Both the position numbers and the translations under genes were made by a program. Shown piece by piece: positions 1 to 46,566 of a stretch of DNA of 64,000 bases. Origin of the DNA: Escherichia coli (GTDB lineage Bacteria; Pseudomonadota; Gammaproteobacteria; Enterobacterales; Enterobacteriaceae); the NCBI RefSeq assembly GCF_050920415.1, contig NZ_CP169309.1. One strand, 5' to 3'. The notes beneath the pieces were generated by a model. That model was not told the DNA's origin. It worked only from the letters and a program-made list of their open reading frames with translations, and did no database searches. Position 1 is the stretch's first letter. Every line of letters starts with the position of its first letter.

Positions 1-743
1 GGTTCGTCGAACTGCGGATCGGCATTCAGCGAAAGTTGGAGTACGCCTTCGTTACGCCCACGGAACATCGCCAGCGCGCGGTGAGAAGGCACCGTTGACA
101 GCGGTTCGTGATGATCGAAATAGTCGCGGAATTTCGCCCCTTCCTCTTCTTTACCGTTCACCACCGTAGAAACCAAATGCGCGTTCTTCCACAGATAATC
201 ACGCACTTTCGCCAGCAGCGCGGCATCTTCGGCAAACCGTTCCATCAGGATATAGCGCGCGCCGTCCAGCGCGGCTTTGGTATCTGCTACGCCTTTATCG
301 GCATCAACATATTGTGCAGCGGCGACTTCTGGCGTGTGCGACGGATCGTTCCACAGTAGGTCGGCCAACGGCTCAAGCCCTGCTTCAATGGCGATTTGCC
401 CGCGGGTGCGGCGTTTAGGTTTGTAGGGCAGGTAGAGGTCTTCGAGTTCGGTTTTACTTAAGGTGGCGTTGATAGCATTCGCCAGTTCGTCGGTCAGTTT
501 GCCTTGCTCGGAAATGGACTTGAGGATTGCCTGACGTCTCTCTTCCAGCTCGCGCAGATAGCTCAGACGCGTTTCCAGATTACGCAACTGCGTGTCATCC
601 AGACCGCCGGTGATTTCCTTACGATAACGTGCGATAAACGGCACAGTATTCCCTTCGTCAAGCAGGCGAACGGCAGCGTCAACCTGTTCCGGGCGCGCCT
701 GAATTTCACCCGCAATAATGCGGCAGAACGAATCATTCATCAT
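1..743 (-). CDS. tex: Transcription accessory protein Tex (YhgF), N-terminal part; gene runs off the window start
   Basis: Minus-strand translation from tandem ATG at 743/740 gives [47 protein letters not shown]..., open to position 1. Missing from the ORF track because no stop lies inside the window. Confidence 0.9.
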
Positions 744-839
744 GGTTTGAGTTCATCTTTTCGGATCAAAAATCAGGGGATAGTTATACGGACTGGCTGG
801 CAAAAATGCCAGCCATCGGCAGGAGGTTAAGACTCTTCC

Positions 840-1316
840 TTACGGTTTCACGTACTCGATAGCATTAACATACCAGCTCGCTTCCCCGGCAGGGGTATTG
901 ACCACTGCCAGATCGCCCACTTCTTTTTTCAGCAATGCGCGGGCCATTGGGGAATCGATAGAGATGTAATCTTTACGGCCAAAAATTTCATCGTAGCCGA
1001 CAATGCGAAAACGGTGAGTCACGCCATCGTCGTTTTCAATCTCCACCCATGCGCCAAAAAAGACTTTGCCTTCCTGTTGCGGGGAGTAATCGACGATTTT
1101 GAGATTTTCCATGCATTTAGTGAGATAGCGCACGCGACGGTCGATTTCACGCAGACGCTTTTTATTATACTGATAGTCAGCATTTTCGCTGCGGTCGCCC
1201 AGACTTGCAGCCCAGGTCACTTTTTTTGTGACCTCCGGGCGCTCTTCACGCCAGAGATAATTTAGCTCTTGTTTGAGTTTTTCATACCCTTCCCGGGTAA
1301 CCAGGGGCGTTTTCAT
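840..1316 (-). CDS. greB: Transcription elongation factor GreB
   Basis: Track ORF 840..1352; internal ATG at 1316 gives MKTPLVTREGYEKLKQELNYLW..., the GreB N-terminus (158 aa). The track start at 1352 is an upstream GTG. Confidence 0.93.
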   Translation of the reverse strand: MKTPLVTREGYEKLKQELNYLWREERPEVTKKVTWAASLGDRSENADYQYNKKRLREIDRRVRYLTKCMENLKIVDYSPQQEGKVFFGAWVEIENDDGVTHRFRIVGYDEIFGRKDYISIDSPMARALLKKEVGDLAVVNTPAGEASWYVNAIEYVKP

Positions 1317-1543
1317 CTCGTTGATTCCCTTTGTCTGTTTGATAATGCGCACATTGGGTATAACGTGATCATATCAACAGAATCAATAATGTTTCGCCGA
1401 ATAAATTGTATACTTAAGCTGCTGTTTAATATGCTTTGTAACAATTTAGGCTGAAATTCATACCAGATTTAGCTGGTGACGAACGTAAGCTTTTTTAAGA
1501 ATACACGCTTACAAATTGTTGCGAACCTTTGGGAGTACAAAGA

Positions 1544-3612
<2,069 letters not shown>

Positions 3613-10084: not shown

Positions 10085-10117
10085 GCGTAGGCCTGGTAAG
10101 CGCAGCGCATCAGGCCA
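10085..10117. repeat. REP (repetitive extragenic palindrome) element
   Basis: GTAGGCCTGGTAAGCGCAGCGCATCAGGCC, a REP-type imperfect palindrome in the yhgE-hslO spacer. Confidence 0.65.
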
Positions 10118-14665: not shown

Positions 14666-15226
14666 ATGAGCAAATCATTACAAAAACCCACCATTCTGAA
14701 TGTTGAAACTGTAGCCCGTTCACGACTGTTTACCGTCGAAAGCGTGGATCTGGAGTTCAGCAATGGCGTGCGGCGTGTTTATGAACGAATGCGTCCAACC
14801 AACCGGGAAGCGGTGATGATTGTGCCGATTGTGGACGATCACCTGATCCTGATCCGCGAATACGCAGTGGGAACGGAATCCTACGAATTAGGTTTTTCGA
14901 AAGGATTAATTGATCCGGGTGAAAGCGTCTACGAAGCCGCTAACCGCGAGCTAAAAGAAGAGGTTGGATTTGGTGCGAACGATCTGACTTTTTTGAAGAA
15001 GCTCAGCATGGCACCGTCTTACTTTTCCAGCAAAATGAATATCGTGGTAGCGCAAGATCTCTACCCGGAATCGCTGGAAGGCGATGAGCCAGAGCCGCTA
15101 CCACAGGTGCGCTGGCCGCTGGCGCATATGATGGATTTGCTGGAAGATCCTGACTTCAACGAAGCACGTAATGTCAGCGCACTGTTCCTCGTGCGCGAGT
15201 GGTTGAAGGAGCAGGGGCGAGTGTAA
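14666..15226 (+). CDS. nudE: ADP-sugar diphosphatase NudE (Nudix hydrolase)
   Basis: 186 aa; Nudix box region GLIDPGESVYEAANRELKEEVG. Confidence 0.93.
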   Translation: MSKSLQKPTILNVETVARSRLFTVESVDLEFSNGVRRVYERMRPTNREAVMIVPIVDDHLILIREYAVGTESYELGFSKGLIDPGESVYEAANRELKEEVGFGANDLTFLKKLSMAPSYFSSKMNIVVAQDLYPESLEGDEPEPLPQVRWPLAHMMDLLEDPDFNEARNVSALFLVREWLKEQGRV

Positions 15227-15239
15227 ATGCGTGAAGTTT

Positions 15240-15337
15240 GCCTGATGCACAATGCTTATCAGGCCTGCGAGACTCCTGCAATATATTGATTTTTCTCGAT
15301 ATTTTCAGACGGATAACGTGTTCACGCCGTATCCGGT
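15240..15337. repeat. Pair of REP-like palindromes in the nudE-mrcA convergent spacer
   Basis: GCCTGATGCACAATGCTTATCAGGCC and ACGGATAACGTGTTCACGCCGTATCCGG, both REP-type palindromes. Confidence 0.6.
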
Positions 15338-15367
15338 ATAAATAAAGTGACACTTTGTCAGCAAACA

Positions 15368-15392
15368 GAAAAAGGCGCCGAAGCGCCTTTTT
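15368..15392. terminator. Bidirectional intrinsic terminator between nudE and mrcA
   Basis: AAAAAGGCGC-CGAA-GCGCCTTTTT, a perfect GC-rich stem flanked by A and T runs, ending 3 nt before the mrcA stop. Confidence 0.8.
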
Positions 15393-15394
15393 AA

Positions 15395-17947
15395 TCAGAA
15401 CAATTCCTGTGCCTCGCCATTATCGATAATGGTCGTTCCCACCTCGTGCACCGCCTGTTGTGTCGGCTGTGTACCTTCGATGAAATACTCTTCGCGGCTG
15501 TTGCCACCATTAGCTAACTGCCCGGTGCTGCGATCGATATTCACCGTCACAATACCCGGCGGCGGCGTCAGCGGCTGTTCCGGCACGCCTTCAAGAACGG
15601 CTTTCATATAAGCGTCCCATGCAGGCTGGGCACTCTTGGCACCGCCTTCGTAACCTGAGATCTGATCTTTAATCGCTCCGGAAGCCGTTGTATGACCGAG
15701 ATTACGACGGTGATCATCAAAGCCAATCCAGACCGAGGTCACAACGCCCGGACCGTAACCCGAAAACCACGCATCTTTCGAACTGTTAGTGGTACCGGTT
15801 TTCCCGCCGATATCGCGACGCTGCAAATCACGACCTGCACGCCAGCCGGTACCCTGCCAGCCTGGCTCACCAAAGATATTGGTGTTCAAAGCACTCTTAA
15901 TCAGGAATGCCAGCGGAGTGTTGATGACGTGCGGTGCGTACTCCTGCGCGCCAGTCTTCGCGACTAACGCCTGATTCGCCTGCTCCAGCTGCGGCATTGG
16001 TACAGAAACATTCTGCTGCTCGCGGGAGATAGCGACATCTTCAACATCGTTATTTTCCAGCACGTTCGATTTCTGCGTATCACCGTAAATCACCGGAATA
16101 TCGCATTCCGGGCAGGCTACTTTCGGTTTCGCTTCGAAAATCACGCCGCCCTGATCGTTTTCAATTTTGCTGATAAACCACGGGTCCACCAGGAAGCCGC
16201 CGTTCGCCATTACCGCGTAGCCGCGCGCCACCTGCATTGGGGTGAAGGACGCTGAACCCAGCGCCAGCGATTCGGTGTGGACAATGTTTTGCGCCGGGAA
16301 GCCGAAGCGTTGCAGATATTCTGCAGCGTAGTCGACGCCCATCGCCCGCATTGCGCGTACCATCACCACGTTTTTCGACTGGCCCAGTCCCTGACGTAAG
16401 CGAATTGGACCGGCATACTGTGGTGGTGAGTTCTTCGGCTGCCAGTCAGAACCGGCACCTGCATCCCAGCGGGAAATTGGCACATCGTTCAACATACTTG
16501 CCAGCGTCAGACCTTTATCCATCGCCGCGGTGTAGAGGAACGGTTTGATGTTGGAACCTACCTGACGCAGTGCCTGGGTGGCGCGGTTAAACTTGCTCTG
16601 ATTGAAATCAAAGCCACCGACCAGCGCCATAACGGCACCGTTTTGCGGATTGATCGACACCAGCGCCGAGTTCACTTCCGGCACTTGTGCCAGCCACCAT
16701 GCATCGCCAACCTGACGAACCCAGATTTGCTGACCCGTTTGCAGAACATCGGTCACTTTACGCGGCGTCGGTCCCTGCTGAGTATCCGAACGGTAAGGAC
16801 GCGCCCAGCGAACGCCTTCCATACTCAATGCGACGGTCGACCCGTCCGCCAGCATCGCCGTCGCTTCCTGAGGATTGGCGCTGGTGACTGCGGCAGGCAG
16901 CAGCGGACCATAGGTCGGCAGCGCCTTCAGCGTATCGGTAATCTTGTTGTTATCCCACGCCGATTCGCCCACTTTCCACAGCACATTTGCCGGGCCGCGA
17001 TAGCCGTGGCGCATGTCGTAGTCCAGCACGTTATTACGTACCGCCTGCTGTGCGGCCTGCTGCACTTTGCGGGTGATGGTGGTGTAAATGCGATAACCGT
17101 CTTCATAGGCACTTTCGCCATAACGGTTATACATCTCCTGGCGCACCATTTCGCTCAGGTACGGCGCAGAGAAAGCAATCTCCGGCGCGTGATAGTTAGC
17201 GTTAATCGCCTCAGTGCGTGTCTGATCGAACTGTTGTTGGGTGATATACCCTTCATCCAGCATCCGCGACAGTACGACGTTACGCCGCGCGACGGCACGA
17301 TCCATTGAGTAGAGCGGATTAAAGGTGGAAGGCGCTTTCGGCAGCCCGGCTATCACCGCCATTTCGTTCAGCGTCAGTTGGTCGACCGTTTTACCGAAAT
17401 AGACTTGTGCCGCAGCACCGACACCATAGGCGCGGTAACCGAGGTAAATCTTGTTCAGATAAAGCTCGAGGATCTCGTCTTTCGTCAGCAACTGTTCAAT
17501 GCGAATCGCGAGGAAGACTTCCTTAATCTTACGCATCAGCGTGCGTTCTGGACTGAGGAAGAAGTTTCTCGCCAGCTGCTGGGTAATGGTACTCGCCCCT
17601 TGTGACGCGTGGCCGGAGAACAGCGCCACACTTGCCGCACGGAAGATCCCCACCGGGTCAACGCCGTGATGCTCGTAGAAGCGGCTGTCTTCCGTCGCGA
17701 TAAAGGCTTTCACCATCTCCGGCGGGATTTGATCCAACGTAACCGGGATACGACGTTTCTCACCGTATTGAGCAATCAGCTCGCCATCGGCGCTGTAAAT
17801 CTGCATCGGAATTTGCAGGCGAACATCTTTTAATGTCGCCACATCCGGCAGTTGTGGCTCGATGTAGCGGTATAGGCCATAAATCGAGCCTGCTCCCAGC
17901 AGAATGCAACAGACTGCAAGGATCAAAAAATACTTTACGAACTTCAC
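15395..17947 (-). CDS. mrcA: Penicillin-binding protein 1A (bifunctional glycosyltransferase/transpeptidase)
   Basis: Track ORF 858 aa; the 850 aa form starts at GTG 17947 (MKFVKYFLILAVCC...); an in-frame ATG lies at 17971. Transpeptidase serine motif region present. Confidence 0.93.
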   Translation of the reverse strand: MKFVKYFLILAVCCILLGAGSIYGLYRYIEPQLPDVATLKDVRLQIPMQIYSADGELIAQYGEKRRIPVTLDQIPPEMVKAFIATEDSRFYEHHGVDPVGIFRAASVALFSGHASQGASTITQQLARNFFLSPERTLMRKIKEVFLAIRIEQLLTKDEILELYLNKIYLGYRAYGVGAAAQVYFGKTVDQLTLNEMAVIAGLPKAPSTFNPLYSMDRAVARRNVVLSRMLDEGYITQQQFDQTRTEAINANYHAPEIAFSAPYLSEMVRQEMYNRYGESAYEDGYRIYTTITRKVQQAAQQAVRNNVLDYDMRHGYRGPANVLWKVGESAWDNNKITDTLKALPTYGPLLPAAVTSANPQEATAMLADGSTVALSMEGVRWARPYRSDTQQGPTPRKVTDVLQTGQQIWVRQVGDAWWLAQVPEVNSALVSINPQNGAVMALVGGFDFNQSKFNRATQALRQVGSNIKPFLYTAAMDKGLTLASMLNDVPISRWDAGAGSDWQPKNSPPQYAGPIRLRQGLGQSKNVVMVRAMRAMGVDYAAEYLQRFGFPAQNIVHTESLALGSASFTPMQVARGYAVMANGGFLVDPWFISKIENDQGGVIFEAKPKVACPECDIPVIYGDTQKSNVLENNDVEDVAISREQQNVSVPMPQLEQANQALVAKTGAQEYAPHVINTPLAFLIKSALNTNIFGEPGWQGTGWRAGRDLQRRDIGGKTGTTNSSKDAWFSGYGPGVVTSVWIGFDDHRRNLGHTTASGAIKDQISGYEGGAKSAQPAWDAYMKAVLEGVPEQPLTPPPGIVTVNIDRSTGQLANGGNSREEYFIEGTQPTQQAVHEVGTTIIDNGEAQELF

Positions 17948-18066
17948 TGGAAATTTCCCATTTAGTTTCATTTGGGCAGTTTATAAACAAACGCGCGGTA
18001 GTATAAAGGCAAGCCAGACGCATTGATATACCCGTCAGAGTGACGGGTGATAAGGAGATCATCACA

Positions 18067-45269: not shown

Positions 45270-46508
<1,239 letters not shown>

Positions 46509-46566
46509 GACGCATCAGGCAAAAGATGTCGGATGCGGCGTGAACGCTGTATCCGAAGGTAGCCTG
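46509..46566. repeat. REP-like element between argD and yhfK
   Basis: GACGCATCAGGC...GTCGGATGCGGCGTGAACGCTGTATCCGAAGGTAGCC, similar to the REP consensus. Confidence 0.6.

Follow-up and report, generated by a model that had tools for sequence, protein, structure and literature searches.

The convergent nudE-mrcA junction of Escherichia coli: a probable two-way terminator hairpin and a single BIME-1 element

The spacer between the convergent genes nudE and mrcA of Escherichia coli very probably records two separate events: the presence of an old two-way intrinsic terminator hairpin next to the mrcA stop codon, and the later insertion, in the ancestor of Escherichia, of one BIME-1 element that has been decaying since. 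The BIME-1 itself is an ordinary one and is already catalogued in K-12. In what follows, we set out the evidence for the two elements, their distribution across Enterobacteriaceae and their variation within E. coli, and weigh these observations against other readings of the same DNA.

The nudE-mrcA junction

The DNA analysed here, which we call the window, is a 64-kb stretch of the E. coli chromosome, with 97.7% identity to K-12 MG1655 across 18 kb; strain MFDS1022581 is 100% identical to it over a 401-nt query spanning the nudE-mrcA locus. An earlier sequence-only reading had described the locus as a convergent nudE/mrcA spacer packed with REP palindromes and a bidirectional terminator, and both the gene names and the convergent layout agree with the ORF list and the RefSeq annotation. 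The two genes leave a spacer of 168 bp (15227-15394). If the annotated K-12 length (2553 nt) applies, mrcA would end at 17947. ORFs that cross the spacer (e.g. 15174-15353, minus strand, 59 aa) were set aside because they run through repeat sequence. The features of the locus are as follows.

14666-15226, plus strand: nudE coding sequence, 186 aa, stop TAA at 15224-15226; from the ORF list and the RefSeq annotation of MFDS1022581 and of all E. coli matches
15227-15239, plus strand: 13-nt stretch from the nudE stop to the first REP stem; weak alignment to the left-flank consensus of the paralogues, invariant between window and K-12
15240-15268, plus strand: z1-type REP, GCCTGATGCACAATGCTTATCAGGCCTGC, with its tail tetranucleotide toward the linker; from the Z1 consensus match, the paralogue alignment and the hairpin
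15269-15303, no strand assigned: L-type long linker of BIME-1, aligning to the consensus CTGCAATATATTGAATTTGCACGATTTT
15279-15291, minus strand: perfect match to the IHF core, AATCAATATATTG against the consensus WATCAANNNNTTR, with an A-rich tract (GAGAAAA) before the core
15304-15338, plus strand: y-type REP, in inverse orientation and degenerate, TTCA-GACGGATAACGTGTTCACGCCGTATCCGGTA, palindrome proper 15308-15337; from the Y consensus match and the alignment
15339-15368, plus strand: right flank motif of BIME-1, TAAATAAAGTGACACTTTGTCAGCAAACAG, kept in most paralogous copies as TAAACAAAGCGCACTTTGTCAGCAATCTG
15369-15392, no strand assigned: predicted two-way intrinsic terminator hairpin, AAAAAGGCGC-CGAA-GCGCCTTTTT, starting 2 nt past the mrcA stop and 142 nt past the nudE stop; A-run 15369-15373, stem GGCGC 15374-15378, loop CGAA 15379-15382, stem GCGCC 15383-15387, T-run 15388-15392
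15395-17971, minus strand: mrcA (PBP1a), stop TGA at 15397-15395, longest ORF 858 aa

A single BIME-1 element in the spacer

Both palindromes are extragenic: they start after the nudE stop (15226) and end before the mrcA stop (15395). Each REP agrees with its consensus at 24 of 27 positions (E=0.001, blastn-short over the 64-kb window), the z1 REP with Z1 and the y REP with Y, the latter on the opposite strand. A second consensus was derived independently from paralogues, and the z1 REP fits it as well. Consensus matches with E<0.01 are few, four in the entire 64 kb, and two of the four are the REPs of this spacer. The REP identity claimed in the sequence-only reading thus came through alignment to the consensus without refutation.

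The two units have fared differently. The z1 REP, at 29 nt unlike the longer z2, folds as RNA at -11.5 kcal/mol (z=-2.85), and its inner stem carries GCA/TGC in place of the consensus GCG/CGC, with pairing kept through changes on both sides. The y REP has TTCA in place of GTAG and five further changes, leaving 8 of its 35 positions off consensus, and its fold of -9.4 kcal/mol (z=-1.35) is equalled by 21 of 200 shuffled sequences; the orthologous y REP of K-12 folds at -17.9 kcal/mol (z=-4.7), so that the one in the window is weaker by about 8.5 kcal/mol. Judged by its sequence, the y unit is a REP by homology that is hardly palindromic above chance in this strain. The conserved GTAG/CTAC tetranucleotide is missing at both REPs, the z1 tail being CTGC (consensus CTAC) and the y head TTCA, and K-12 has TTAT and GTTA at these places. 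The REP-associated transposase needs the GTAG tetranucleotide both to bind and to cleave (Ton-Hoang 2012, PMC3333891). Because both tetranucleotides have been lost, the spacer copy is best regarded as a decayed member of the REP family, and one that can probably no longer be mobilised.

An independent set of family members was assembled by scanning metagenome contigs with a 22-nt pattern that lies only inside the linker. The scan returned 73 loci with 25 distinct sequences, representing 17 genomic places, with a z1 on one side of the linker in most of the 17 and a y on the other side in all. Most of these places also share a left motif of about 24 nt and a right motif of about 30 nt, which are probably the extra-PU motifs described in earlier work on BIMEs. 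The window is colinear with these 17 paralogous BIME-1 loci from 15240 to 15368, that is, across z1, linker, y and right flank. Since the retrieval pattern lay within the linker only, the z1, y and flank sequences of the 17 paralogues serve as independent evidence. Ahead of the first REP stem, the 13 nt that follow nudE may be what is left of a decayed left flank motif; where the element begins on that side is uncertain.

A BIME-1 is described as a z1 and a y with a long, well-conserved L linker between them, often with an IHF site, and as occurring in single copies (Ton-Hoang 2012, PMC3333891). RIP and RIB are other names under which these elements appear. The spacer holds a z1, an inverse y and an L linker with an IHF-type core, in a single copy at the locus. 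BIME-2 elements combine z2 and y with short S linkers in tandem copies; none of these traits was found in the spacer, with its z1, L linker and one copy. DNA gyrase is associated mainly with BIME-2 rather than with BIME-1. The sequence-only reading was right that two REPs are present, but the loose cluster that it pictured gives way to one composite element, since the REPs, the linker and the 30-nt flank together form one BIME-1, which fills nearly all of the spacer outside the hairpin. Its suggestion of IHF binding gains a predicted site: the linker contains a perfect WATCAANNNNTTR core (13/13, vs 12/13 in both the family consensus and K-12), and such cores number 6 in the 64 kb against 2.4 expected, which puts the chance expectation for a 168-bp spacer at about 0.006. 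IHF probably binds the DNA of the BIME-1, a role much less certain than the identification of the element.

Other repeats of the family occur in the window. A well-preserved solitary z1 REP lies at 10087-10115 on the minus strand (27/29, GTAG intact), possibly with a decayed partner upstream, and a REP pair is located just past a coding region at 46505-46560, with a Y core of 18/18. A search with the pattern CTTATCMGGCCTAC allowing 3 mismatches was discarded, as it found 6 matches in the whole window against 5.9 expected, and only its 1-mismatch matches are meaningful.

Two other readings of this DNA can be weighed at this point. One holds that both palindromes are chance inverted repeats outside the REP family, in keeping with a y unit that folds no better than shuffled sequence and with a repeat finder that, at its length cut-off, reported the terminator arms only. 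We give this reading virtually no chance. The Z1 and Y matches, each at E=0.001, speak against it, as do the annotation of the K-12 orthologue as REP251 and the insertion of IS1397, an element that targets palindromic units, in the y loop; the colinear alignment of the whole element to the 17 paralogues, linker and flank included, refutes it. The other reading places a small RNA of the ES036/CssrF type on the minus strand of the linker. The Rfam model for ES036 (RF02751) does match 15261-15303 on the minus strand (E=0.0014), and a promoter-like site (CTGAAA, 17 nt, TATATT) is found inside the L linker at 15308-15280 on the same strand. However, the match reaches 27 bits, short of the 37.6 bits set as gathering score, two stem pairs of the model are broken in the window, and the promoter-like site is at the level of chance (1 found vs 1.0 expected). 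Moreover, the ES036 consensus itself consists of an L linker and a REP tail from another BIME. The match therefore reflects repeat homology and not a gene, and a small RNA encoded here is highly improbable. As a separate observation, the ES036 (CssrF) consensus corresponds to our most abundant metagenome match, which is flanked by z2 and y; sub-threshold matches of this model on BIME-1 linkers in general therefore follow.

The two-way hairpin

The rest of the spacer is taken up by the hairpin, in which two 10-nt arms, 15369-15378 and 15383-15392, pair with 100% complementarity around a loop of 4 nt. It folds at -14.2 kcal/mol on the plus strand and -14.5 kcal/mol on the minus strand (z of about -3.8), and none of 200 shuffled sequences folded as well. 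The GGCGC/GCGCC stem is followed by a T-run on either strand (TTTTTAAT on plus, TTTTTCTGTTT on minus), giving U-tracts of T5 on the plus strand and of T5 then CTGTTT on the minus strand. The form that the sequence-only reading had assigned to a bidirectional terminator, an A-run, a GC stem and a T-run, is therefore present as a perfect 10+10-nt inverted repeat with a hairpin and a T-run on both strands, from which termination in both directions would be predicted. A simple terminator scan reported the minus strand only, as it counted the A/T pairs as part of the stem and so left the plus strand without a T tail, and taken by itself the scan was at chance (2 found vs 1.1 expected). The support for a terminator comes from its conservation across genera. 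Within Escherichia, the stem is invariant in 13 alleles.

One reservation is that a hairpin only 2 nt past a stop codon could be partly covered by the terminating ribosome, which would lower the efficiency of mrcA termination. Rfam matches to rsmX, STnc320, STnc40 and ctRNA_p42d were rejected as chance or terminator-only hits, being far below their gathering scores and aligned only on a generic terminator hairpin.

History of the junction across Enterobacteriaceae

We collected nudE-mrcA junctions from 80 species of Enterobacteriaceae, 70 of which were resolved for the count of hairpins. Stems were read by direct listing, and an RNAalifold analysis of a MAFFT alignment of 22 terminator regions was discarded because the 3' arms were out of register. 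Among the spacers outside Escherichia in which the end of mrcA was reached, most measure 26-142 bp and three are longer, up to 259 bp; those that were read have no BIME-1. Such short spacers without BIME-1 occur in Citrobacter, Salmonella, Yokenella, Trabulsiella, Klebsiella, Raoultella and Cedecea.

Many genera carry a hairpin with an A-run, stem and T-run 2-7 nt past the mrcA stop, built on at least 5 different stem sequences. The GGCGC stem of the window is also present, among the matches listed, in Salmonella and most Citrobacter, while the stem is GGCGCC in Yokenella and Trabulsiella, GCGCC/GGCGC in Klebsiella and Raoultella, CCCTTC/GAAGGG in Cedecea and GCCCTTC/GAAGGGC in one Enterobacter. 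Under strict criteria, the hairpin was found in 32 of the 70 resolved species; REP-type hairpins were found in 27 of the 70, and 24 of these 27 have no strict hairpin. The BIME-1, by comparison, is confined at this junction to Escherichia, with the full-length element in E. coli and Escherichia sp. E1V33. Given that genera free of BIME-1 carry such a hairpin, with differing stems, at a matching distance from the mrcA stop, the sequence comparison indicates that a hairpin is the conserved feature of the nudE-mrcA junction and that the window's own hairpin was in place before the BIME.

A number of lineages depart from this arrangement. In E. albertii, only the 3' half of y and the right flank are kept and the rest of the element is deleted, and E. 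coli SCPM-O-B-8794 has an internal deletion spanning the linker and the 5' half of y. Escherichia sp. MOD1-EC7003 has at least 4.2 tandem 128-bp BIME-1 units (z1, L, y, flank) with 94% identity, running off the end of the contig (NZ_PTRE01000012.1; positions 2073-2611 of our junction L080), in contrast with the single-copy BIME-1 described in the literature. In Escherichia whittamii, both the BIME and the hairpin are replaced by an ORF of 234 aa with hydrophobic stretches, which starts just past the mrcA stop (positions 2071-2775, minus strand, of our junction L081) and has no Pfam match. Citrobacter koseri, Pseudescherichia vulneris and Escherichia sp. ESNIH1 carry a head-to-head pair of REPs with a short linker right after the mrcA stop and no A-run/T-run hairpin, and in these lineages REPs seem to have replaced the terminator. 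Finally, in Salmonella enterica diarizonae a decayed z1-like REP overlaps the nudE stop (GCCTGA followed by TGGCGCTGCGTTTATCAAGCC), with a y-like half preceding the hairpin.

Variation and insertion within E. coli

The nudE-mrcA locus is present in 5425 of 5426 complete E. coli genomes and was recovered at full length, as one place, in 5422. The sequence-only reading had suggested that REP copy number can differ between strains. Among the complete E. coli genomes, this did not hold, as the copy number is constant at one and the tandem junction of MOD1-EC7003 occurs in 0 of 5426; it is within the genus that copy number varies, from the array of MOD1-EC7003 to the partial deletions in E. albertii and SCPM-O-B-8794. 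The same reading's view of such sites as hotspots for insertion found its counterpart in two complete genomes (95-3322 and 09A19CPO009), where IS1397 has inserted in the y-REP loop at this very locus (GCGTTCA, then the IS, then TCACCCGC). IS1397 is known for its specific insertion into palindromic units. Across the genomes, a junction query that joins an IS1397-family end to the L linker and half a y REP is matched over at least 80% of its length in 2297 of the 5426, at various loci, one genome having at least 40 such pieces; insertions of IS1397 in the y loops of BIME-1 look widespread.

The element is also very variable in sequence, 13 alleles of it falling into at least 3 haplogroups, with that of O104:H4 being a mosaic of two of these. 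The window allele is a minority one, at least 99% identical over the 401-nt query in 14 of the 5426 genomes. Against K-12, the flanking 4.6 kb differs by 1.7%, whereas the spacer differs at 25 of 168 positions and is 85% identical. All 25 differences fall within 15255-15369 and none is in the stem or loop of the hairpin, and 15227-15254, which covers the 13 nt after nudE together with the left half of z1, is invariant, so that this stretch may be under constraint. Within the BIME, 22 of 129 aligned sites (17%) are substituted, against 67 of 896 (7.5%) 4-fold sites of nudE, mrcA and igaA (Fisher p=0.001), which is a divergence about twice as fast as at 4-fold sites. We also observed 7 differences from K-12 in the 3' end of nudE (15100-15199), where neighbouring bins have 0-2 per 100 nt.

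This pattern hints at a divergent haplotype block that extends beyond the BIME (15100-15226) and at recombination rather than local mutation alone. The faster-than-neutral divergence could thus come from recombination or gene conversion, and not from a mere lack of constraint. A stronger form of this idea would be that the mosaic, fast-diverging alleles are products of repeated gene conversion among the BIME-1 copies of the genome, or of selection on alleles that set the 3'-end processing of nudE and mrcA, as opposed to plain decay. We consider this a long shot. If true, the window allele would have moved from a strong RNA hairpin, given its weakened y stem (by about 8.5 kcal/mol), toward a better IHF site (13/13 vs 12/13).

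Discussion

Our preferred explanation is that an old two-way terminator was joined by one BIME-1 that is now in decay. The hairpin at 15369-15392 most likely ends mrcA transcripts 2 nt past the stop codon, and nudE transcripts about 165 nt past theirs, after read-through of the BIME. The BIME-1 would have entered between the nudE stop and the hairpin in the ancestor of Escherichia and would by now be an immobile relic, as suggested by its lost tetranucleotides, the y stem weakened in this strain and its fast divergence. Lying in the 3' untranslated region of nudE, it would be transcribed with that gene. Much less certain than the identification are the effects that it may have there: its hairpins may slow 3'-to-5' exonucleases and so protect the 3' end of nudE, on the other strand it may provide a Rho-assisted backup for mrcA read-through, and, with its first stem 13 nt past the stop, it possibly lowers nudE translation. 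Liang, Rudd and Deutscher reportedly found in 2015 that a gene is translated less when a REP follows its stop codon within about 15 nt.

The main alternative is that the BIME-1 is the chief functional unit of the spacer and is under selection, as an architectural site bound by IHF and, at the RNA level, as an element that keeps nudE mRNA stable or adjusts its translation. Several observations would agree with this: a single copy is kept in 5422 of 5426 complete E. coli genomes, the IHF core is perfect in the window where the family consensus and K-12 have 12/13, pairing in the inner z1 stem is preserved through two-sided changes, and 15227-15254 is invariant between the window and K-12. Convergent pairs with REPs are also more highly expressed, according to a preprint (10.64898/2026.03.23.713779). 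However, the same preprint reports no general effect of REPs on mRNA half-life, the BIME diverges more than 4-fold sites do, and the stability of the y hairpin has been halved in the window lineage. In addition, nudE and mrcA are intact in E. albertii and SCPM-O-B-8794, which have lost part of the BIME, as well as in E. whittamii, where an ORF has taken its place, and other genera manage with the hairpin alone. Rapid divergence, a weakened y stem and deletions in sister species together argue, at the level of sequence, against strong selection on the whole BIME, and we regard a selected BIME-1 as unlikely, if the least unlikely of the alternatives. We therefore retain the reading of a conserved terminator beside a decaying BIME-1.

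The element agrees well with what has been catalogued in K-12. The supplement of the preprint (10.64898/2026.03.23.713779) lists the orthologue as REP251, "Convergent", with nudE and mrcA (NC_000913.3 3525479-3525576), and it places a peak of in-vitro Rho binding over REP251 on the mrcA-sense strand. The RefSeq annotation of K-12 has no REP feature at the locus; it has none at a control region for REP1 either and so seems to lack REP features, which makes the absence uninformative. Like REP251, the element occupies the orthologous position between nudE and mrcA, with the same order of z1, L with an IHF-type site, and y, with its tetranucleotide ends facing the linker, and as a single, extragenic copy. 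Unlike REP251, the window allele has three extra changes in y that halve the stability of the hairpin, and one base difference that makes its IHF core perfect; unlike canonical REP ends, its tetranucleotides are CTGC and TTCA.

The hairpin in turn resembles known bidirectional Rho-independent terminators in being a perfect palindrome with an A-run, a 5-bp G+C stem, a 4-nt loop and a T-run between convergent genes. In E. coli, 306 bidirectional terminators were counted in a published study to which the preprint refers (10.64898/2026.03.23.713779). The spacer can also be compared with REP/BIME terminators or stabilisers in 3' untranslated regions, such as REP325, with which it shares REP hairpins in an intergenic 3' UTR and, for REP251, an overlapping Rho-binding peak in vitro. 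REP325 is, however, a BIME-2-type array of 12 z2/y hairpins with no adjacent U-tract hairpin, whereas here two z1/y hairpins stand beside a canonical intrinsic terminator. The nudE-mrcA REPs are therefore probably accessory.

REPs are found in about 30% of the convergent intergenic regions of E. coli (207 of 704, as given in 10.64898/2026.03.23.713779). With REP251 catalogued, and BIME-1, IS1397 targeting and two-way terminators all described, the significance of this locus in itself is little. Its modest value is that of a clean worked example, in which a stable, conserved two-way hairpin persists while REPs come and go at one convergent junction: they were inserted in Escherichia, multiplied in one cryptic lineage and lost in part from E. 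albertii, and they stand in for the hairpin in C. koseri and Pseudescherichia.
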